DNA of 64,000 nt from an uncultured Candidatus Saccharibacteria bacterium (GCA_964556125.1 CAZKUW010000002.1:37380-101379); one strand, 5' to 3'; positions 10,318 to 45,972 are shown, counted from the first letter of the stretch. The notes: a model not told the origin generated them from the letters alone. Made by a program: numbers and translations.

Positions 10318-10346
10318 TTGACATATTTACTATAGTTTTATATACT
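10318..10346 (+). promoter_or_regulatory. rplJ-rplL promoter (TTGACA-17 bp-TATACT)
   Basis: Consensus -35 TTGACA at 10318-10323, a 17-nt spacer, and TATACT at 10341-10346. This gives a leader of about 180 nt. Confidence 0.65.
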
Positions 10347-10359
10347 CCCTAGTAGACAT

Positions 10360-10464
10360 CCCAAAGACAGTAGCTGTGGCAACACTTAATTCGCTACCGA
10401 GGTAAATGTAAAACATACATTTTTTCAGTCTTTGGCAGTGCGAGAACCAAAGACTTTTTGTTTT
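10360..10464 (+). promoter_or_regulatory. rplJ leader with terminator/antiterminator alternative pairing (L10-leader-like attenuator)
   Basis: AGTCTTTGG (10427-35) pairs with CCAAAGACT (10447-55), followed by TTTTGTTTT. An upstream CCAAAGAC (10361-68) can pair with the same 5' arm. Confidence 0.55.
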
Positions 10465-10535
10465 CTCTGGGAAAAGCTGCCTGTCTAGCATGACTTAACA
10501 ATTTGGCCGAATGAATAATAACCAAGGAGATTTTT

Positions 10536-11060
10536 ATGGCAATTACCCGCGATAAAAAGAACGAATTGGTTGCTGAAATGGGCGAACTGTTCACAAGTGC
10601 AAAAGCAACTGCTTTCGCACACTACGACGGTTTAAGTGTCGCTGACCTTCAAAAGTTACGTGCACAAGCCCGCGAAGCTGGCGTGGTTATCCGAGTGGTT
10701 AAAAACCGCTTGGTCCGCGTTGCTCTCGGTGAAGTCGAGGCATATAAAAACACTGATGTCTCAGGCCTTACTGGACAACTCCTTTACGCTATTAGCGCTG
10801 AGGATGAAGTTGCTCCCGCAAAGACCTTGAGTACATTTGCAAAAACCAATGACGCGCTTGTCATCGCTGGTGGATTTTCTAACGAAGGAGCTCTTTTGAG
10901 CGCCGCGGAAGTTACCTCACTTGCGAGCCTGCCAAGCAAGAACCAACTTATTGGCGAAGTCATTGCACAACTGCTTTCACCAGTTCACGATATCACCAAC
11001 GCACTTCAGGGCAACCTGCACGCGCTTTTGGATGGTATTGAAGCTAAAGCAACCAGTTAA
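10536..11060 (+). CDS. rplJ: 50S ribosomal protein L10
   Basis: 174 aa. AAGGAG RBS. KKNELVAEMGELF...ADLQKLRAQAREAGVVIRVVKNRL is typical of L10. Confidence 0.93.
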   Translation: MAITRDKKNELVAEMGELFTSAKATAFAHYDGLSVADLQKLRAQAREAGVVIRVVKNRLVRVALGEVEAYKNTDVSGLTGQLLYAISAEDEVAPAKTLSTFAKTNDALVIAGGFSNEGALLSAAEVTSLASLPSKNQLIGEVIAQLLSPVHDITNALQGNLHALLDGIEAKATS

Positions 11061-33451: not shown

Positions 33452-33718
33452 TTAGGACATAATGTTCAATAGAGTCCAGTTTCCTCCATGGTTGTCGCTG
33501 CGAAGACGGTAAAGAGATTGGCCATCAGATAGGGTAATAATCTCAGCCATTTGCTCGCCTGAGCGGACGATACAGCGAAGTCCGGCGTCGATAAATTCGT
33601 AGATTGATCCACGGAACTCCATACGACGTGGGTACGCAGACAAGTCCTTTTTGAAACCCATTTTTGTGACGGCGATTTCTTCATTGATAGTGATACGATT
33701 CATTGTTTTGTTCTCCAA
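33452..33718 (-). CDS. hypothetical small protein (83-88 aa)
   Basis: ORF with a GGAGA RBS before the MNRITINEE start. No family recognised. Confidence 0.5.
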   Translation of the reverse strand: MENKTMNRITINEEIAVTKMGFKKDLSAYPRRMEFRGSIYEFIDAGLRCIVRSGEQMAEIITLSDGQSLYRLRSDNHGGNWTLLNIMS

Positions 33719-34009
33719 AGTAGATTTATTGTGTAGTAACGCAAAATAGCTGACAACAAGATTCTGGTCAGCAGCGGCTTTTAATGGAGGAGAGATTTAG
33801 AGAGGGGAGAGAGACCGCTTCGACTCGTCTGCCTTTTTACTAAACATCACGTAGAATTGTATCGATTGCTAGGGGCGCCTTCCTGTTAACCGGGGTGTGC
33901 ATAGCATCGTTTGGTGGCTTCTTTAAGCCTATAAGTGAAAATCCTCGCAGAAGTACTTATATGACTGTTCCTAGTATACTCCCGTTGACCGGCCTGATAC
34001 AATAGATTT

Positions 34010-35089
34010 ATGGCCGAACCGGTGATAAATATTAACACTTCTGTACTGACACAAGAGCAAGCAAAATCGCTCGTTAATGTGTACTCAAAAAGACTTTTTG
34101 AATGGCGCACATCGCAAGCGTCGTCTGTTCATAGTAACTATGAACGGCTTTGGACTACCATTTCAACATTGTTTCATTCTGGAGGCAAACGCCTTCGTCC
34201 ATTTATGACCTTATTGACCTACCAAGCCTATTCAAACAAACCCGTCACAAATATTCTCCCTGCTGCAGTTGCCCAAGAGTTACTCCATCAGGCAATGCTC
34301 ATCCATGACGATATTATCGACCGTGACACGACTCGCTATCATGTCAAAAATGTTTCTGGCCAATATCGAGATATTTACGCGGGTACACCCGAGGCAACTC
34401 ATTTTGCCGATAGTAGCGCCCTCCTTGCTGGTGACCTACTCCTCTCTGAAGCCCACGTCCAGGTAGCTCTCGTAGATGTCAGCCCTGAAATCCTCACAAA
34501 AGCCCAAGACATCCTCAATCAAGAGGTCTTTCATGTTGTTGGTGGTGAATTACTTGATACCGAAGCGAGTTTCACAAATGACTCGACGATTGACCCGTTA
34601 ACTATTGCTGAACAAAAAACAGCGAGCTATTCATTCGTGGGTCCGCTCACAATGGGAGCGACACTCGCTGGCGCTAGCGAAGAGCAAATCGGACTGCTCA
34701 AACACTTTGGAACCTCTGTCGGAATCGCTTTTCAGCTTCGAGATGATATTCTCGGTATCTTTGGCAGCCAAGACGTGACAGGTAAGAGTACTGAAGGTGA
34801 TATCCGAGAAGGAAAACGGACACTTCTTATCGACGAGTTTTATAAGCGAGCCTCTGCTGAACAAAAGGCACAATTCGATGCAATTTTTGGCTCAAAAGAT
34901 GCGACCAACGAAGATATTCAGACACTACGAGATCTGTTAACCCACAGCGGTGCCCGCTCTGCAATTGAAACCTATATCGAATCGTATAAACAACAAACCA
35001 CTGACCATTTAGCCGAGCTCGACATCACAGATGATTACCGTCAACAATTTGTCAGTTTGATCGAAAAAAGCTTGGACCGGGAAAGTTAA
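34010..35089 (+). CDS. crtE: polyprenyl (geranylgeranyl) diphosphate synthase
   Basis: First Asp-rich motif LIHDDIIDRD and second FQLRDDILG. First gene of the carotenoid operon. Confidence 0.85.
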   Translation: MAEPVININTSVLTQEQAKSLVNVYSKRLFEWRTSQASSVHSNYERLWTTISTLFHSGGKRLRPFMTLLTYQAYSNKPVTNILPAAVAQELLHQAMLIHDDIIDRDTTRYHVKNVSGQYRDIYAGTPEATHFADSSALLAGDLLLSEAHVQVALVDVSPEILTKAQDILNQEVFHVVGGELLDTEASFTNDSTIDPLTIAEQKTASYSFVGPLTMGATLAGASEEQIGLLKHFGTSVGIAFQLRDDILGIFGSQDVTGKSTEGDIREGKRTLLIDEFYKRASAEQKAQFDAIFGSKDATNEDIQTLRDLLTHSGARSAIETYIESYKQQTTDHLAELDITDDYRQQFVSLIEKSLDRES

Positions 35090-35913
35090 TGGATCTTTAC
35101 GAACGAACATCCTATCATCTCAGTAAAGAGCTTACCAATAGCTACTCAACCTCTTTTAGCTTGAGCATGCGCTTATTTAGTCCTAACATTCGTGAACACG
35201 TCTATGCTGTGTACGGCATGGTTCGTATCGCCGACGAGATCGTCGACAGCTACGCCGGAAAAGATCAACGACTGCTTCTCGATGAGCTCGAAAAGGAAGT
35301 CAAAGCTGCGGTAAAAAGAGGCTACAGTACTAATCCTATTGTTCACTCGTATGCACTGACCGCTCATCGCTACAATATCCCCAATACGCTCGTGACTGCG
35401 TTCTTTAAGAGTATGCGCATGGACCTCCATAAAGTGACGTTTGACACCGCTCTGTACGAGACCTACATCTATGGCTCGGCAGAAGCCGTTGGTTTAATGT
35501 GCTTAAAGATATTCACCGATGATGAAGCGCTATACCTTAAGCTCGAAAAGGGTGCTCGTCATCTCGGAGCAGCGTACCAAAAAGTAAACTTTCTTCGTGA
35601 TATAAAAGCTGACCACGAAGCGCTCGATCGTTGGTATTTCCCGTACGCTTCTTTCGAAAGTTTCGATGATAAGATCAAAGCAAGAATCATTAAAGATATT
35701 GAAAAGGATTTTGTCATCGCGCAAAAAGGTGCCGACGGCCTTCCCGAAAACTCTCGCCGTGCCGTCCAGCTCAGTATTTCTTATTACCAGACACTCCTTA
35801 ATAAGATAAAGTCTGTCCCGGCATCGAAGCTCAAAACTCATCGCCTCCGACTCAATAATCTCCACAAGCTCGGGCTTTTTGTGAAGGTAAGGACCATGCG
35901 CAGTGAATCGTAA
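35089..35913 (+). CDS. crtB: phytoene synthase
   Basis: Squalene/phytoene synthase family: YAVYGMVRIADEIVD, YIYGSAEAVGLM and AYQKVNFLRDIKAD. The start overlaps the crtE stop (TAATG). Confidence 0.85.
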   Translation: MDLYERTSYHLSKELTNSYSTSFSLSMRLFSPNIREHVYAVYGMVRIADEIVDSYAGKDQRLLLDELEKEVKAAVKRGYSTNPIVHSYALTAHRYNIPNTLVTAFFKSMRMDLHKVTFDTALYETYIYGSAEAVGLMCLKIFTDDEALYLKLEKGARHLGAAYQKVNFLRDIKADHEALDRWYFPYASFESFDDKIKARIIKDIEKDFVIAQKGADGLPENSRRAVQLSISYYQTLLNKIKSVPASKLKTHRLRLNNLHKLGLFVKVRTMRSES

Positions 35914-37420
35914 GGTTATTATCATTGGCGGAGGCATCGGTGGCCTGGCGACAGCGAATCTTTTGCAAAAAGCAGGCTATAGCGTTTCCCTTTATGAACA
36001 AAATGACCAACTCGGAGGACGAGCAGGTCTAAAAGTCACTCAGGGTTTTAGCTTTGACACTGGACCGTCATGGTACTTAATGCCGGGCGTCTTTCGCCAT
36101 TACTTTGATCTCTTTGGTATCAATGTCGATAAAGAACTGGCATTAAAGAAGCTCAAGCCTGCCTATAAGGTGTTTTACGAGTCGCATGGACCGATTACTA
36201 TTACAGGAAACCTAAAAACCGATACTGTAACATTCGAAAGGATCGAAGCCGGCGCTGGTGAGGCATTAGATCGATACGTCGAGCAGGGAAATGACATCTA
36301 CCAATTCGCTCTCAAACACTTCTTGTATACAAACTTCGATCTTCGTGACTTTATGAAGACCGATATCATCAAGAAAACTTTTCCGCTGTCGAAGCTCCTC
36401 GTTACTTCGATTCACAACAGAGTAAAATCATTCGTGAAGCACCAAACGCTGCAACAGATCTTAGAGTATCCAATGGTATTTCTTGGTACCTCACCATTCA
36501 AAGCCCCAGCTCTCTATAGCCTGATGAGCGCACTCGATTTTAAAGAAGGGGTGTACTATCCAAAAGATGGTATTTACTCTATCATCACCCTCCTTGAGAA
36601 GACTGGCCGTGACCTTGGCGTGTCATACCGTCTCAAATCTGGCGTAAAGAAAATCACTCATAAGAACGGACGGGCGACAGGGATCGAACTCCTCAACGGT
36701 AAACAGATTGAGGCAGATATCGTGATTTCGAATGCAGACCTTCACTTTACAGAAACGAAGCTACTTTCGCCATCGGTACGCTCCTACCCAGAAGAGTACT
36801 GGAAAGACAAAGAACCTGGCATTTCTGCTCTCCTCGTCTACCTTGGTGTGAAAGGTTCGTTGCCACAACTCGAACATCACAATCTCTTTTTCGTCGATAA
36901 ATGGAAAGAGAACTTTAAGAAGATTTATGAATCAAGAGAGATTCCAGAGTCAGCCTCACTCTACATCTGCAATCCATCGAAGTCTGACCCGAACGTCGCT
37001 CCAAAAAATAATGAAAATCTCTTTATGTTAGTGCCACTTCCTGCCGGTGTTTCATTGAACAAAGCGAAACTTGCACAACTAACCGAAAAATTCATCGATC
37101 AATTTGCAGAGTCTATTGGTGAGAAAGATTTAAAGAATCGTATCGTTTATCAAGAAAGTTTTGGACCGAATGATTTCGAAACGAAATTTGGTGCTTGGCA
37201 GGGGACAGCGCTAGGAGCATCACATATCTTAAAACAAAGTGCATTTTGGCGGACACCAAATAAAAGTAAAAAACTTGATAATCTCTTTTACGTCGGCGGC
37301 AATACTGTCCCAGGTGTTGGGCTTCCGATGTGTTTAATCGGTGCTGAGCTTGTCTACAAAAGAATTGCTGACATTAAAGTAAGTGGTCCCATCACCAAGA
37401 TTGAAGGAATGCAGCAATAA
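35903..37420 (+). CDS. crtI: phytoene desaturase
   Basis: GTG start. FAD fold VIIIGGGIGGLATANLL, and the C-terminal LFYVGGNTVPGVGLPM typical of CrtI. Confidence 0.88.
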   Translation: MNRKVIIIGGGIGGLATANLLQKAGYSVSLYEQNDQLGGRAGLKVTQGFSFDTGPSWYLMPGVFRHYFDLFGINVDKELALKKLKPAYKVFYESHGPITITGNLKTDTVTFERIEAGAGEALDRYVEQGNDIYQFALKHFLYTNFDLRDFMKTDIIKKTFPLSKLLVTSIHNRVKSFVKHQTLQQILEYPMVFLGTSPFKAPALYSLMSALDFKEGVYYPKDGIYSIITLLEKTGRDLGVSYRLKSGVKKITHKNGRATGIELLNGKQIEADIVISNADLHFTETKLLSPSVRSYPEEYWKDKEPGISALLVYLGVKGSLPQLEHHNLFFVDKWKENFKKIYESREIPESASLYICNPSKSDPNVAPKNNENLFMLVPLPAGVSLNKAKLAQLTEKFIDQFAESIGEKDLKNRIVYQESFGPNDFETKFGAWQGTALGASHILKQSAFWRTPNKSKKLDNLFYVGGNTVPGVGLPMCLIGAELVYKRIADIKVSGPITKIEGMQQ

Positions 37421-37725
37421 TGCCTTGGTATTTGATCGGTCTCATTGTCGCCATCAGTTGTCTCGCGCTGATTGACTACCGTTTCAAGCTCGCATTTTTC
37501 TTTGACAAAAAACGCACCATCGCCACCCTTGGCACGGCTATCGCATTATTCATCGTATGGGATGTTCTCGGTATTTGGTTGGGCATTTTCTTTCACGGGG
37601 GCTCAACGCTCACTCTTCCGTTTCGGATTATTCCGGAATTTCCGATCGAAGAGTTATTCTTCCTTTTGCTTTTGACCTATACGACCTTGATAGCATTTCG
37701 TTTTCTTGAAAAGAGGAAGTCATGA
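37420..37725 (+). CDS. lycopene cyclase domain protein, small subunit 1 (CrtYc/CrtYe-like)
   Basis: 101 aa with three TM helices and PIEELFFLLL (the cyclase PxE(E/D) motif). The start overlaps the crtI stop. Confidence 0.7.
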   Translation: MPWYLIGLIVAISCLALIDYRFKLAFFFDKKRTIATLGTAIALFIVWDVLGIWLGIFFHGGSTLTLPFRIIPEFPIEELFFLLLLTYTTLIAFRFLEKRKS

Positions 37726-38012
37726 CGTATATTATCCTCAACCTCCTTTTCCTGGCGACGCTGATATTCTTCTTACCCAATAGCTTTAAAAAACCGACCA
37801 AAAAATGGTGGTTACTCCTGGCGATTGTCATCGGCATGACGGCAATTTTTGATCCGATCATCATCGCGCTCGATATCGTCGACTATAACCCTCAACACAT
37901 CCTCGGAATTTACTGGTTCGGAGCACCGATTGAAGATTTCTTCTACGCTTTCTATGCGGTATTATTAATTCCATTAGTCTGGAACAAATTAGGAGCCTCC
38001 CGTGTTAAATAA
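37722..38012 (+). CDS. lycopene cyclase domain protein, small subunit 2 (CrtYd/CrtYf-like)
   Basis: 96 aa, membrane protein, with PIEDFFYAF. ATGA overlap with the previous gene. Confidence 0.7.
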   Translation: MTYIILNLLFLATLIFFLPNSFKKPTKKWWLLLAIVIGMTAIFDPIIIALDIVDYNPQHILGIYWFGAPIEDFFYAFYAVLLIPLVWNKLGASRVK

Positions 38013-38847
38013 GTTACAGAAACTTTTTAAGGTGTCACGACCGATTTCTTGGGTAAACACCGCCTATCCTTTTGCAGCAGGGTATTTATTACTTGGTGGT
38101 CATGTTGATCCTGTCTTTATAATCGGCAGCCTCTTCTTCCTAATTCCTTACAACATTTTGATGTACGGCATAAATGACGTTTTCGATTATGAGTCCGACA
38201 TTCGCAACCCTCGAAAGGGAAGTATCGAGGGTGCTGTGGAGTCAAAACAGTTCCACCCGTTTATCATTAAGGCGTCGCTCATTTCAACCCTCCCTTTTGT
38301 TGTCATCTTAGCGTTTTTGATCCCATGGTATGCACTCCTGACACTCATAGGTGTGTTGTTCTTTGTCGTTGCTTATAGCGTAAAAGGACTTCGTTTTAAG
38401 GAAATACCGTTTATCGATTCCATCACTAGTAGCCTGCACTTTGTTGGACCACTTATTGTTGCTATGGCAATATTCGGTTTCCCTCAAGTCGCGTGGCCAT
38501 TCGTTGCCGCCTTCTTCTTATGGGGAATGGCGAGCCATGCATTTGGTGCTGTTCAAGACATTATTCCAGATCGAAAAGGGCATCTGGCATCGATTGCAAC
38601 GGTGCTCGGAGCTCGGTCAACGGTTGGCGTGAGCTTCCTACTGTACTTGCTCAGTTCGATTATTCTCGCTGAAAAAGGTCACAACGTCTTCGTTGCTGTC
38701 ATCGGCTTATTGTACGTACTAAATGTCCTGCCGTATCTTCGTGTTACGGATAAGACATCCCAAAAAACAAATAAAGGATGGCGCCGGTTTATCTGGATCA
38801 ACTACGCAGCTGGCGCGATGATCACCCTGAGCCTTATTTTTATCTAA
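38002..38847 (+). CDS. UbiA-family prenyltransferase (lycopene elongase CrtEb-like candidate)
   Basis: 281 aa, polytopic, with NDVFDYESD (NDxxDxxxD) and a second Asp-rich site AVQDIIPD. Overlaps the cyclase gene by 11 nt. Confidence 0.7.
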   Translation: MLNKLQKLFKVSRPISWVNTAYPFAAGYLLLGGHVDPVFIIGSLFFLIPYNILMYGINDVFDYESDIRNPRKGSIEGAVESKQFHPFIIKASLISTLPFVVILAFLIPWYALLTLIGVLFFVVAYSVKGLRFKEIPFIDSITSSLHFVGPLIVAMAIFGFPQVAWPFVAAFFLWGMASHAFGAVQDIIPDRKGHLASIATVLGARSTVGVSFLLYLLSSIILAEKGHNVFVAVIGLLYVLNVLPYLRVTDKTSQKTNKGWRRFIWINYAAGAMITLSLIFI

Positions 38848-39314
38848 ACACCAAAACCTTCTTGAAGCGCCGCTTGTCTGGCCATCTTTGCCTGCTTTTC
38901 GACAGCAGCAATGCCGATCACCTCAGCAAATACTTTCACACGGGCGACATGATTGATTTCGACACCCTCACTTAATAAGCGCCAGTAACTGTCAAAGTCA
39001 TTCACAAAACTAAGCGAATCGACAGGAGCTTTAAAGACCTCAACACACCCCCCTCCGGCTCGCATCATAGAGGGATCTTCTTCAAAGTAGCTGTATCCAT
39101 TGATCCATACCTGAATAGGACGATCATCTGTTCGCTTGATCGATAAGAAATTGTCCTCGCGGACGAGTCCTAAGCGAGCCCGGCCCACATCATCACCGGA
39201 AAAAACATTCTCTATTTGAATAACATCTCGAAAAGTAGGGACACCTAAAGTAAACTCCCCACGCTCAATGGCGCTCAAATCAGGTGAGTGGAACGTCTCG
39301 CGATATCCTGGCAT
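38844..39314 (-). CDS. hypothetical protein (156 aa)
   Basis: ORF with TATAAT 8 nt upstream of the ATG. No family recognised. Confidence 0.5.
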   Translation of the reverse strand: MPGYRETFHSPDLSAIERGEFTLGVPTFRDVIQIENVFSGDDVGRARLGLVREDNFLSIKRTDDRPIQVWINGYSYFEEDPSMMRAGGGCVEVFKAPVDSLSFVNDFDSYWRLLSEGVEINHVARVKVFAEVIGIAAVEKQAKMARQAALQEGFGV

Positions 39315-39411
39315 ATTTATATATTATACCATTTTTTCAACATAAGGAAAACACCCCGCCAGCTACGACGAGGTGCTCCCGGTCGGAGTGGCGAGGTGTG
39401 AGCTCGCTGTT

Positions 39412-40020
39412 CTATCCGCGCAACAGCCAGGCAAGGAGGCGACGAGGTCGCTGCTCCTGCTTAGGCGTGTAGTGCGTGTCGACACGCCGACCTGCCTTGA
39501 TGGTCTGGCCGCCGGCCAGCTTGACGTGAGCATCGATCGTCACGTTCTGGGCCACGACGATGTCGTTTCCCATAGTGACGAAGTTGCCGATGCGGCTGTT
39601 CTTGCCGAGCGTGACGTTGCCGCCAGCCTGGAAGTTCTTGCCGATCACGACACCATCCTCGATGGTGGAGTTGGGACCGATGTCGCAGGACCAGCCGATC
39701 ACGACGTTGTTGCCGACCGTGATGTTGGTGTCCATGCAGACACTGCCCTCGAACTCCGTGTGATGACCGATCTTCACCCAGGCAAGCTGGGTGTCGAAAC
39801 CGATCTTGGAGAAATCGCCGATGACGATCTCCATGAACTCGCAACCGTTCCCGATCACGACGTTGTTGCCGATGTGCACGTCATCCTTGAACCAGACGTT
39901 GTGCCCGATGGTGACGTGGTCACCGACGGTGAAGCTCCCCCCGACCTTCACCTCAACGACAGAGCCGTCAGGGTTTGTGTGCGAGTAGGTAGTTAGTGTA
40001 TCCAAGATGGATGCCCCCAA
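39412..40020 (-). CDS. GC-rich islet E: left-handed beta-helix (hexapeptide-repeat) protein
   Basis: Tandem [LIV]-G-x4 repeats (VTIGHNVWF.DDVHIGNNVVIGNGCEF...VGNNVVIGWSCDIGPNSTIEDGVVIGKN). GC3-rich. The start is uncertain: TTG at 40020 or a downstream TTG. Confidence 0.65.
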   Translation of the reverse strand: MGASILDTLTTYSHTNPDGSVVEVKVGGSFTVGDHVTIGHNVWFKDDVHIGNNVVIGNGCEFMEIVIGDFSKIGFDTQLAWVKIGHHTEFEGSVCMDTNITVGNNVVIGWSCDIGPNSTIEDGVVIGKNFQAGGNVTLGKNSRIGNFVTMGNDIVVAQNVTIDAHVKLAGGQTIKAGRRVDTHYTPKQEQRPRRLLAWLLRG

Positions 40021-44809: not shown

Positions 44810-45367
44810 CTAATTCTTTCTCAAACGGGCAAAACCTATACTACTTGCCATGCCTATCACGAGCGCTGTGATGCCAACTACATATCCCGCCACATTTGCG
44901 ACGTATGCCATGCTATCGAAGGCGTAAGCGTTCAGCAACATTCCCCTCAGAGTCTCACCCCGGAATATGGTATCAACTTTAGCAACGAGTTCTGCATTTG
45001 ATGGATCTTTCATTGCTTGAGCACTTAACTCTGAATAGGTCTTACCGTCACCAATCCTTGAGACATGAACTGCGATGTAATGATCAGCGAATACTTCAGC
45101 CTGCAGGCCGTCTACGAGTTGTTGGCCCGCATACTGTGACACCAGATCTTTATCTCCACTTGGTAATGCATTCATCTCAGGGCTATCAAGAGTAGGGAAG
45201 AAGATCCTCTGTCTCTCTAGCTGACTCGACACCTGACCATGAAGAAAGTTATAGGTGACAAACAGACCCAAAGAGATACTCGCCAGCATTATAGCGATAC
45301 AGACACCGATGACTGAAACCCCTTTCAGGACAGTGGAGCGAGATATATTCATAAGAATGATACCCAA
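44810..45367 (-). CDS. membrane protein (185 aa), function unknown
   Basis: N- and C-terminal TM helices around an ectodomain. Overlaps the upstream VKOR gene by 19 nt, suggesting an operon. Confidence 0.55.
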   Translation of the reverse strand: MGIILMNISRSTVLKGVSVIGVCIAIMLASISLGLFVTYNFLHGQVSSQLERQRIFFPTLDSPEMNALPSGDKDLVSQYAGQQLVDGLQAEVFADHYIAVHVSRIGDGKTYSELSAQAMKDPSNAELVAKVDTIFRGETLRGMLLNAYAFDSMAYVANVAGYVVGITALVIGMASSIGFARLRKN

Positions 45368-45972
45368 TACTCACGAAACTGAATAAGGACCAGTACTATG
45401 AACGCGACGTACCATACACTCCCGATAATCACACGATTTTTAGAGATATAGGCGACAACATTACTAGTGCTTCTGGTAACTTTTTTATGATCAAGGTGTG
45501 CATATTCACTTATCAGTGATAAGAACAAAAGTGGTGTTGTGAGCCAAATAGAGAGACACCAAGGACAAATGACATGCAGCACAAAGAGACTTTGGATGAT
45601 TAAATAATGTACGAAGACTAGTCCTAGTATCGAAAATACGAGCAATGTTTTCCATATGACCCGCGGGAAACGAACATTTAAGAGCAGTAGTCCCGCAACA
45701 ACCACCAACGCCATGTACAACATGACGCCAAAGAGACTATTTGGTACACCAAGTATTTCTGACTGTTCTGATGACATAGCCGACATACACGAGATGATCG
45801 GATTAATACTGCAGGCAGGCACAAAATCTGGCTCTTGGAGAAGTCGGATCTTATCAATTGTCAGTACGAACGATGCCAGCAAACCAACAACGCCGCTGAA
45901 TAGTATGACGATGCTATTTCGATGAGTGTTAAGGAATAAAATGAGAGTTTTAAGTGTGCGCGAACTATTCAT
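45349..45972 (-). CDS. vitamin K epoxide reductase (VKOR) family protein
   Basis: A loop Cys pair (ACSINPIISC) followed by the redox motif CPWC in a TM helix. About five TM helices in total. Confidence 0.75.
   Translation of the reverse strand: MNSSRTLKTLILFLNTHRNSIVILFSGVVGLLASFVLTIDKIRLLQEPDFVPACSINPIISCMSAMSSEQSEILGVPNSLFGVMLYMALVVVAGLLLLNVRFPRVIWKTLLVFSILGLVFVHYLIIQSLFVLHVICPWCLSIWLTTPLLFLSLISEYAHLDHKKVTRSTSNVVAYISKNRVIIGSVWYVAFIVLVLIQFREYWVSFL

Follow-up and report, generated by a model that had tools for sequence, protein, structure and literature searches.

A putative cyclic C50 carotenoid operon of actinobacterial type in the chromosome of an environmental Saccharimonadales bacterium

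Bacteria of the Candidate Phyla Radiation (CPR) are usually pictured as organisms without lipid, isoprenoid or cofactor biosynthesis, and a conserved, selected pigment pathway runs counter to that picture. Such a pathway is suggested by six adjoining carotenoid (crt) genes at positions 34010-38847 of a 64-kb stretch of DNA (64,000 nucleotides, hereafter the window) from an uncultured Candidatus Saccharibacteria bacterium (GCA_964556125.1, CAZKUW010000002.1:37380-101379). The locus raises the question of what these genes make, how long they have been in this lineage and where their substrate comes from. The original prediction described them as a translationally coupled operon with the layout of the C50 cluster of Corynebacterium glutamicum. 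We consider it likely that they constitute a functional, single-promoter pathway leading to an actinobacterial-type cyclic C50 carotenoid in an environmental member of the Saccharimonadales. The enzymology of such clusters is already known; the phylum is new for this kind of cluster, and the interest of the finding lies in host biology rather than in enzymology.

Gene content, enzyme identity and expression signals

The listing of open reading frames (ORFs) in the window contains six plus-strand ORFs that together span 34010-38847, exactly the interval given beforehand. The features of the operon are as follows.

33995-34003, plus strand: promoter-like extended -10 box TGaTACAAT, found by sequence inspection
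34010-35089, plus strand: crtE, trans-polyprenyl diphosphate synthase, putatively a geranylgeranyl diphosphate (GGPP) synthase; 359 amino acids (aa), PF00348
35089-35913, plus strand: crtB, phytoene synthase; 274 aa, PF00494
35903-37420, plus strand: crtI, FAD-dependent phytoene desaturase; 505 aa, TIGR02734, GTG start
37420-37725, plus strand: crtYe-like, first subunit of a heterodimeric C50 carotenoid cyclase; 101 aa, TIGR03462
37722-38012, plus strand: crtYf-like, second cyclase subunit; 96 aa, PF18916 and TIGR03462
38002-38847, plus strand: crtEb, UbiA-family lycopene elongase; 281 aa, PF01040 and NF009608, GTG start

All of the predicted junctions were found. Consecutive genes overlap by 1, 11, 1, 4 and 11 nucleotides (nt) from crtE/crtB to crtYf/crtEb, with the sequence TAATG at crtE/crtB and crtI/crtYe and ATGA at crtYe/crtYf, and both 11-nt overlaps (crtB/crtI and crtYf/crtEb) carry GTG starts. 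A purine tract resembling a Shine-Dalgarno (SD) sequence lies 4-10 nt 5' of each internal start. The protein motifs quoted in the prediction are likewise all present in the translations, and its gene identities and C. glutamicum-like order were borne out by family scans, by comparison with characterised proteins and by synteny in 80 loci.

The products of the first three genes belong to the families expected for lycopene synthesis. The crtE product matches PF00348 (1.6e-48, Pfam), carries a first (DDIID) and a second (DDILG) aspartate-rich motif, and is encoded at the first position as in actinobacterial clusters, at 31-39% identity. The crtB product matches PF00494 (4.1e-43, Pfam), shows the DxxxD motifs DEIVD and DIKAD in its translation and is 35-46% identical to the actinobacterial CrtB proteins encoded at the same position. 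The crtI product scores 494 bits against TIGR02734 (crtI_fam, cutoff 238), matches PF01593 and PF13450 in Pfam and shares 38-48% identity with actinobacterial CrtI.

Judged by its sequence, the UbiA-family product of crtEb is a clear orthologue of characterised lycopene elongases. Reference enzymes from Corynebacterium, Micrococcus and Dietzia were obtained by translating the ORFs printed in the supplement of PMC6393565. Over its full length the protein is 48.8% identical to C. glutamicum CrtEb, 48.6% to Micrococcus luteus CrtE2 and 48.0% to Dietzia LbtC (taken as the LbtC part of LbtBC); the three references are only 52-55% identical among themselves. The protein matches PF01040 and scores 387 bits against NF009608 (PRK13105, cutoff 217), the model that takes the UbiA proteins of actinobacterial E-B-I-Ye-Yf-Eb clusters at 405-447 bits (Glutamicibacter, Kocuria, Rhodoluna, Agromyces). 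More distant UbiA relatives fall in NF009516, a model passed by P0196, P0213 and P0216, and against it the crtEb product reaches 137 bits, under the cutoff of 205. NF009516 (PRK12875) is presumably the LyeJ family. The gene context of one of these relatives, the PRK12875-type protein P0196, was considered as a guide to adjacency with cruF and set aside, its contig being only 1.5 kb long.

The crtEb product did not group with menaquinone or heme-O prenyltransferases, a possibility that the original prediction had raised. In phmmer comparisons it scored 299-310 bits against actinobacterial CrtEb and 1.7-9.3 bits against E. coli UbiA, MenA and CyoE, and the characterised elongases fall in its sister clade, as described below. 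It reached 30 bits against the MqnP family, far under the cutoff of 375, and matched no UbiA-family chain in the PDB at E <= 0.01. Its two aspartate-rich motifs, NDVFDYESD and QDIIPD, are kept in all Saccharibacteria, Actinomycetota and reference sequences, and D59, D62, D66, D186 and D190 are invariant in the alignment. The GTG start of crtEb is supported by the conserved N-terminal SRPISW motif, which is common to the references.

A survey of UbiA homologues, with representatives clustered at 50% identity, revealed fusions to a family 2 glycosyltransferase (GT2), a lycopene-cyclase domain or a CrtI/D-type desaturase (P0131, P0127, P0138, P0156; P0121/L092; P0253). The GT2 fusions include a Saccharimonadales protein. 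In P0121/L092 (4612-5778), from a metagenomic lineage related to this one, the elongase is fused to the second cyclase subunit within an operon E-B-I-Ye-[Yf~Eb], which is the arrangement of Dietzia LbtBC. In the outgroup lineages that branch just outside, the cyclase halves lie directly upstream of the UbiA gene.

The two short proteins encoded upstream of the elongase both pass the TIGR03462 lycopene-cyclase domain model (cutoff 39.4), with 47.5 bits for the crtYe product and 46.9 bits for the crtYf product; the latter also matches PF18916 (5.8e-10, Pfam). The first contains the motif PIEELFF and the second PIEDFFY. In BLASTP comparisons the first subunit matched only CrtYe, CrtYg and LbtA (43.6% identity to C. 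glutamicum CrtYe, 36.4% to M. luteus CrtYg, 32.3% to Dietzia LbtA), and the second only CrtYf, CrtYh and LbtB (31-34%, with 32.6% for CrtYf). The ranges for the window subunits, 32-44% for the first and 31-34% for the second, compare with 32-38% among the reference cyclase subunits themselves. A 4-base overlap of crtYe and crtYf has also been described for the Corynebacterium and Dietzia clusters (PMC6393565). An assignment of the ring type (epsilon, gamma or beta) from sequence was attempted and abandoned: all three characterised types lie inside the actinobacterial clade, and the window subunits are about equally far from all three references, only the first subunit leaning to Corynebacterium CrtYe.

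The predicted leaderless-type start of crtE gained support. The extended -10 box ends 6 nt upstream of the crtE ATG, and no SD sequence precedes this start. Of 12 Saccharibacteria loci that show no other conservation in their upstream DNA, 10 have a TAnAAT box 6-10 nt 5' of the crtE ATG, a recurrence that supports a leaderless-type start. Consensus scans of the operon detected no internal promoter or terminator that was convincing above the shuffled expectation. The overlapping ORFs and the lack of internal signals are consistent with one transcript, which would probably be leaderless and be translated with coupling through the overlapping stop and start codons.

Genomic context, phylogeny and selection

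By its gene content and nearest homologues, the window is a segment of a Saccharimonadales (Saccharibacteria, CPR) chromosome, in agreement with the metabolically reduced genome perceived in the original prediction. Wherever the nearest homologues of the UbiA protein (more than 120 clusters at 63-96% identity) have a name, it is Candidatus Saccharimonadales, Microsaccharimonas or Saccharibacteria. The window contains rplA, rplJ with its leader, thyA, folA, dcd, tmk, tdk, dnaX, dnaB, recR, cysS and greA, as well as genes for a two-component system, a MacB-type ATP-binding cassette (ABC) exporter, a P-type ATPase, a KsgA-like methylase, Sua5, VIT1, a VKOR-family protein, a Shedu defence protein, pilin-like proteins and a UvrD/PD-(D/E)XK helicase-nuclease. 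Both flanks of the operon consist of housekeeping genes typical of a small CPR genome.

The backbone-like composition attributed to the operon, unlike that of the GC-rich islets, is borne out by two measures. The GC content of the crt genes is 0.42-0.46, compared with 0.461 +/- 0.028 in 27 further genes from the window, and their pooled codon frequencies correlate with the backbone at 0.89, whereas the adjoining GC-rich islet reaches only 0.26. Actinobacterial crt loci have a mean GC content of 0.635. All six genes are also present, at 72-78% amino-acid identity, on a Saccharimonadales contig of 795 kb (GCA_039918075.1), where, as in the window, a P-type ATPase gene lies upstream of them and an rRNA methylase gene downstream. 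The shared flanks and the CPR-type surroundings indicate that the operon is native and not an actinobacterial contaminant.

For the analysis of synteny we collected 80 related loci, one genome per GTDB species, from ~25 Saccharibacteria species and ~55 Actinomycetota, and judged gene order only in loci with enough flank. The scan returned ~25 Saccharibacteria/Patescibacteria species at 54-72% identity, with Actinomycetota next (49-55%), chiefly members of the Micrococcales (Leifsonia, Arthrobacter, Glutamicibacter, Kocuria, Rhodoluna, Aquiluna, Brevibacterium). The order E-B-I-Ye-Yf-Eb is identical in every sufficiently long locus of both Saccharibacteria and Actinomycetota, and this recurrence of the same block places the six-gene arrangement far beyond chance. 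The flanks of the operon are conserved in the closest Saccharibacteria loci.

The trees of CrtB and CrtI each split the Saccharibacteria from the actinobacterial copies in 200 of 200 bootstraps. In the elongase tree the actinobacterial clade includes all four characterised elongases and has the Saccharibacteria clade as its sister. A concatenated tree of CrtB, CrtI and CrtEb (1028 columns, with the outside lineage L089 included) recovered the actinobacterial clade in 300 of 300 replicates and a Saccharibacteria clade, including the fusion-bearing lineage L092, in 291 of 300. Mean distances are 0.60 within the Saccharibacteria, 0.61 within the sampled Actinomycetota and 0.91 between the two groups, and the Saccharibacteria clade is not nested in the actinobacterial one. 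Against the closest relative, L087, the ratio of nonsynonymous to synonymous change (omega) is 0.025 for crtEb and 0.056 for crtYf; against L001 the proportion of synonymous differences is ~0.8, which is saturated, and that of nonsynonymous differences 0.13-0.22. The deep clade of its own, the matching composition and the low omega values together mark the operon as old, vertically inherited, compositionally ameliorated and subject to purifying selection. The proposal made at the outset, an older acquisition or inheritance by descent, is thus supported by a single clade (291/300) of the same depth as that of the Actinomycetota and not nested in it. The only close relatives belong to the Actinomycetota, the phylum of the known hosts, and the equal depth of the two sister clades may reflect one exchange at a very early date. 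The direction of this ancient transfer cannot be read from the trees, the clades being reciprocally monophyletic.

One locus in this set carries a conflicting label. The crt operon on SEAL01000015.1 (L017), labelled as a Chloroflexi metagenome-assembled genome (MAG), nests in the Saccharibacteria clade; the contig has a GC content of 0.47 and is probably mis-binned.

Proposed pathway, precursor supply and competing explanations

Orthology to clusters whose functions were resolved by genetics and reconstitution is the basis for the order of steps that we propose. The functions of the C. glutamicum cluster were established by deletion and complementation (PMC3598387), those of the Kocuria rhizophila cluster by mutants and liquid chromatography-mass spectrometry (preprint), and the reference C50 enzymes were reconstituted in E. 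coli (PMC6393565). By analogy, CrtE would condense isopentenyl diphosphate (IPP) with an allylic diphosphate to GGPP, CrtB would join two GGPP to phytoene, and CrtI would desaturate phytoene to lycopene. CrtEb would then extend both ends of lycopene by one C5 unit each, derived from dimethylallyl diphosphate (DMAPP), to form an acyclic C50 intermediate resembling flavuxanthin, and the CrtYe/CrtYf heterodimer would cyclise both ends to a pigment similar to decaprenoxanthin, sarcinaxanthin or C.p.450. The operon of the window has no glycosyltransferase gene. In Saccharibacteria loci the operon is repeatedly found beside housekeeping genes, namely those for a histidine kinase, a response regulator, an ABC transporter, RluB and EngA; accessory carotenoid, idi or mevalonate (MVA) pathway genes are not among them. 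In four loci (L010, L012, L015 and L017), a gene for an oxidoreductase resembling ferredoxin-NADP reductase, recognised by sequence motifs, lies directly 3' of crtEb (e.g. L015, 10907-12034, plus strand); it is absent from the window and may be an accessory gene.

The closest parallel among known systems is the C. glutamicum cluster crtE-cg0722-crtB-crtI-crtYe-crtYf-crtEb (PMC3598387), which agrees with the window operon in its enzymes, in their order on a single strand, in the 4-nt overlap of crtYe and crtYf, in the aspartate-rich elongase motifs and in the PxE(E/D) motifs of both cyclase subunits. It differs by the membrane protein gene cg0722 between crtE and crtB, which the window lacks, and by a divergent gene for the MarR-type regulator CrtR; no such regulator was detected upstream in the window, where an unrelated ORF of 88 aa takes the divergent position. 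The window operon also differs in its leaderless-type start, its GC content of 45% and its CPR host, reported to be without the methylerythritol phosphate (MEP) pathway that feeds the Corynebacterium cluster. The Dietzia sp. CQ4 cluster crtEBI-lbtA-lbtBC (beta-cyclic C.p.450) likewise places the cyclase genes before the elongase gene, but there a single protein, LbtBC, unites the second cyclase subunit and the elongase, whereas in the window the two are separate ORFs with an 11-nt overlap. The cluster of M. luteus (crtE-crtB-crtI-crtE2-crtYg-crtYh; gamma-cyclic sarcinaxanthin) comprises the same set of enzymes, but its elongase gene precedes the cyclase genes, while in the window it follows them.

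Several points weigh against the cyclic C50 interpretation. All trees are neighbour-joining trees only, and in the elongase-only tree the Saccharibacteria clade has moderate support (121/200). Every NCBIfam match of the crtE protein fell under its equivalog cutoff, which makes GGPP as its product an assumption. The comparison set for the half-cyclases consisted of C50 references. Finally, no MEP, MVA or idi gene was detected in Pfam scans of the 64-kb window or among the genes that flank the operon in other Saccharibacteria loci. Chiriac et al. (PMC9166423) described Saccharimonadia with only the C10-C20 isoprenoid steps, and Starr et al. (PMC6031116) a closed rhizosphere Saccharibacteria genome without an IPP pathway, for which scavenging was suggested. 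Neither study thus reports a C5 route in Saccharibacteria.

Endogenous C5 supply is found elsewhere, by the MEP pathway in C. glutamicum and in the form of an idi gene beside the A. arilaitensis cluster. As the window shows no IPP pathway and none has been reported for the group, the C5 precursors would most likely come from outside the cell, from a host, and their import would be the most economical explanation. Peptidoglycan-walled bacteria of this group need undecaprenyl phosphate, so IPP must already be obtained from somewhere.

Four other explanations were weighed against a functional cyclic C50 pathway. The one closest to published opinion is an acyclic C50 pathway to bacterioruberin of the haloarchaeal or Arthrobacter agilis type (lyeJ-cruF-crtD), which also relies on a UbiA-family protein for the elongation of lycopene to C50. 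The UbiA protein would then be LyeJ, the CrtI-like protein CrtD, and CruF would be encoded elsewhere. A study of Lake Baikal (PMC9948471, 2023) reported C50-type lyeJ, crtD and cruF homologues in Patescibacteria and read them as a bacterioruberin pathway, with cruF distant from lyeJ and crtD in a Saccharibacteria MAG; among NCBIfam models, one for a bifunctional phytoene/3,4-desaturase fits the window CrtI best (514 bits, under the cutoff of 640); and the window covers only 64 kb of the genome. On the other hand, the two cyclase subunits, which are translationally coupled to the elongase, would be superfluous in an acyclic pathway, the UbiA protein passes the model of CrtEb from cyclic C50 clusters and fails NF009516, and Pfam scans of nearly all window ORFs of at least 150 aa found no CruF-type (Caroten_synth) protein. 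We therefore regard bacterioruberin as an unlikely product. The Lake Baikal genes come from the same phylum-level group, and the 'lyeJ' and adjacent 'crtD' are probably homologous to the genes of the window; they were, however, reported as scattered genes, whereas the window holds a complete six-gene operon with cyclase subunits that is orthologous to cyclic C50 clusters. The bacterioruberin reading of the Patescibacteria genes should probably be corrected to a cyclic C50 one. Quite unlikely, too, is a C40 pathway in which the half-proteins form a lycopene beta-cyclase of the CrtYc/CrtYd type and yield beta-carotene, for instance as a precursor of retinal for the rhodopsins and heliorhodopsins common in Saccharimonadia, while the UbiA protein prenylates another substrate, such as a quinone for the nearby VKOR. 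This explanation can draw on the lycopene-cyclase domain, which is common to C40 and C50 cyclases, on heliorhodopsin genes less than 10 kb from the operon in two relatives, and on the VKOR-family gene at 45349-45972. It conflicts with the orthology of the UbiA protein to characterised lycopene elongases and its remoteness from UbiA, MenA and CyoE, with the fusion of UbiA to a cyclase subunit in related lineages, and with the lack of blh and rhodopsin genes in the window (tblastn, Pfam scans) and of blh in the rhodopsin-bearing Saccharibacteria of Jaffe et al. (PMC9296517).

It is also conceivable that the genes are intact but serve no function, as a pathway stranded without IPP or DMAPP. The absence of an IPP pathway from the window and from reports on the group speaks for this, but the strong purifying selection on all six genes and their conservation across a deep clade, together with an IPP source implied by the established need for undecaprenyl phosphate, make it very unlikely. 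A non-native operon, arising by misassembly or misbinning from a co-occurring actinobacterium or by very recent transfer, might be suspected because the known hosts of Saccharibacteria are Actinobacteria and the nearest homologues outside the Saccharibacteria are actinobacterial. That idea is effectively refuted already and deserves hardly any credence: the operon lies physically inside 64 kb of CPR-type housekeeping genes, its GC content and codon usage follow the backbone and not the GC-rich actinobacterial loci, ~25 species-level Saccharibacteria genomes share the operon, the closest of them with conserved flanks, and its clade is deep (291/300), with the internal distance well below that to the Actinomycetota.

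Implications for host biology and neighbouring loci

We found no description of this operon in Saccharibacteria in full-text literature searches, and the papers on Saccharibacteria rhodopsins (PMC9296517, PMC9166423) note the missing blh without mentioning carotenoid genes. Combining the above results, we offer tentatively, as a possibility that we do not favour over others, that episymbiotic Saccharibacteria without C5 synthesis keep a selected C50 pathway and run it on host IPP and DMAPP, at ten C5 units per pigment molecule, that the operon goes back to a single, very ancient exchange between the lineages of host and symbiont, and that the role of the pigment may exceed photoprotection. If this were true, the pigment could stiffen a membrane built from scavenged lipids, or it could be the carotenoid partner of the heliorhodopsins and proton-pumping rhodopsins concentrated in Saccharimonadia. 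Scarce C5 units, probably derived from the host, would be spent on a specialised membrane pigment, which makes the transfer of precursors from host to episymbiont testable. Free-living or light-exposed environmental Saccharibacteria would probably be pigmented, and this could aid their enrichment and sorting. The operon also adds a carotenoid source to the question of the chromophores or antennae of Saccharibacteria rhodopsins and heliorhodopsins.

Heliorhodopsin genes (PF18761) were observed less than 10 kb from the crt operon at L001 (17309-18070, minus strand) and L009 (19669-20409, minus strand), that is, in 2 of ~20 Saccharibacteria loci searched by tblastn, where a rough random expectation would be ~0.3 or fewer. 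This linkage hints at a functional connection between carotenoid and heliorhodopsin. A tblastn search found no heliorhodopsin in the 64-kb window, and with only two linked loci we treat heliorhodopsin as a side note and not as part of the system.

Two small genes adjoin the operon. Downstream, the crtEb stop overlaps by 4 nt a convergent ORF (38844-39314, minus strand) encoding 156 aa, which has no family or structure match in Pfam, NCBIfam or the PDB; it occupies the same place in L001 (54% conserved) and is also present in L087 and L088. Upstream, the ORF of 88 aa (33452-33718, minus strand) lies in the opposite orientation to the operon and has no match in Pfam, NCBIfam or the PDB. It is 92% identical to its homologue in L001 and 81% to that in L004, a conservation above that of the crt genes. 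In L001, two genes are inserted between this homologue and crtE. Neither ORF was counted as a part of the operon, the linkage being confined to the closest relatives.

Next to the 156-aa ORF lies a GC-rich islet (39373-40020, GC content 0.59) that is open on both strands. Its minus-strand ORF (39412-40020) encodes a protein resembling hexapeptide-repeat acyltransferases (Hexapep, 2.9e-19). The antisense plus-strand ORF was picked by gene callers in L001 and L087; protein conservation favours the minus strand (49% versus 39% identity). Further downstream, the VKOR-family protein (45349-45972, minus strand, 1.2e-37) occurs in an organism not known to make quinones. A gene for a Shedu anti-phage protein (47790-49249, minus strand; SduA_C, 1.3e-17) adjoins tRNA-Gln(CTG) in the part of the window that is richest in AT (GC content 0.37) and may form a small defence island at the tRNA gene. 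Finally, a ribosomal protein L10 leader (RF00557, 62 bits) is located at 10343-10469 on the plus strand, upstream of rplJ (10536-11060).

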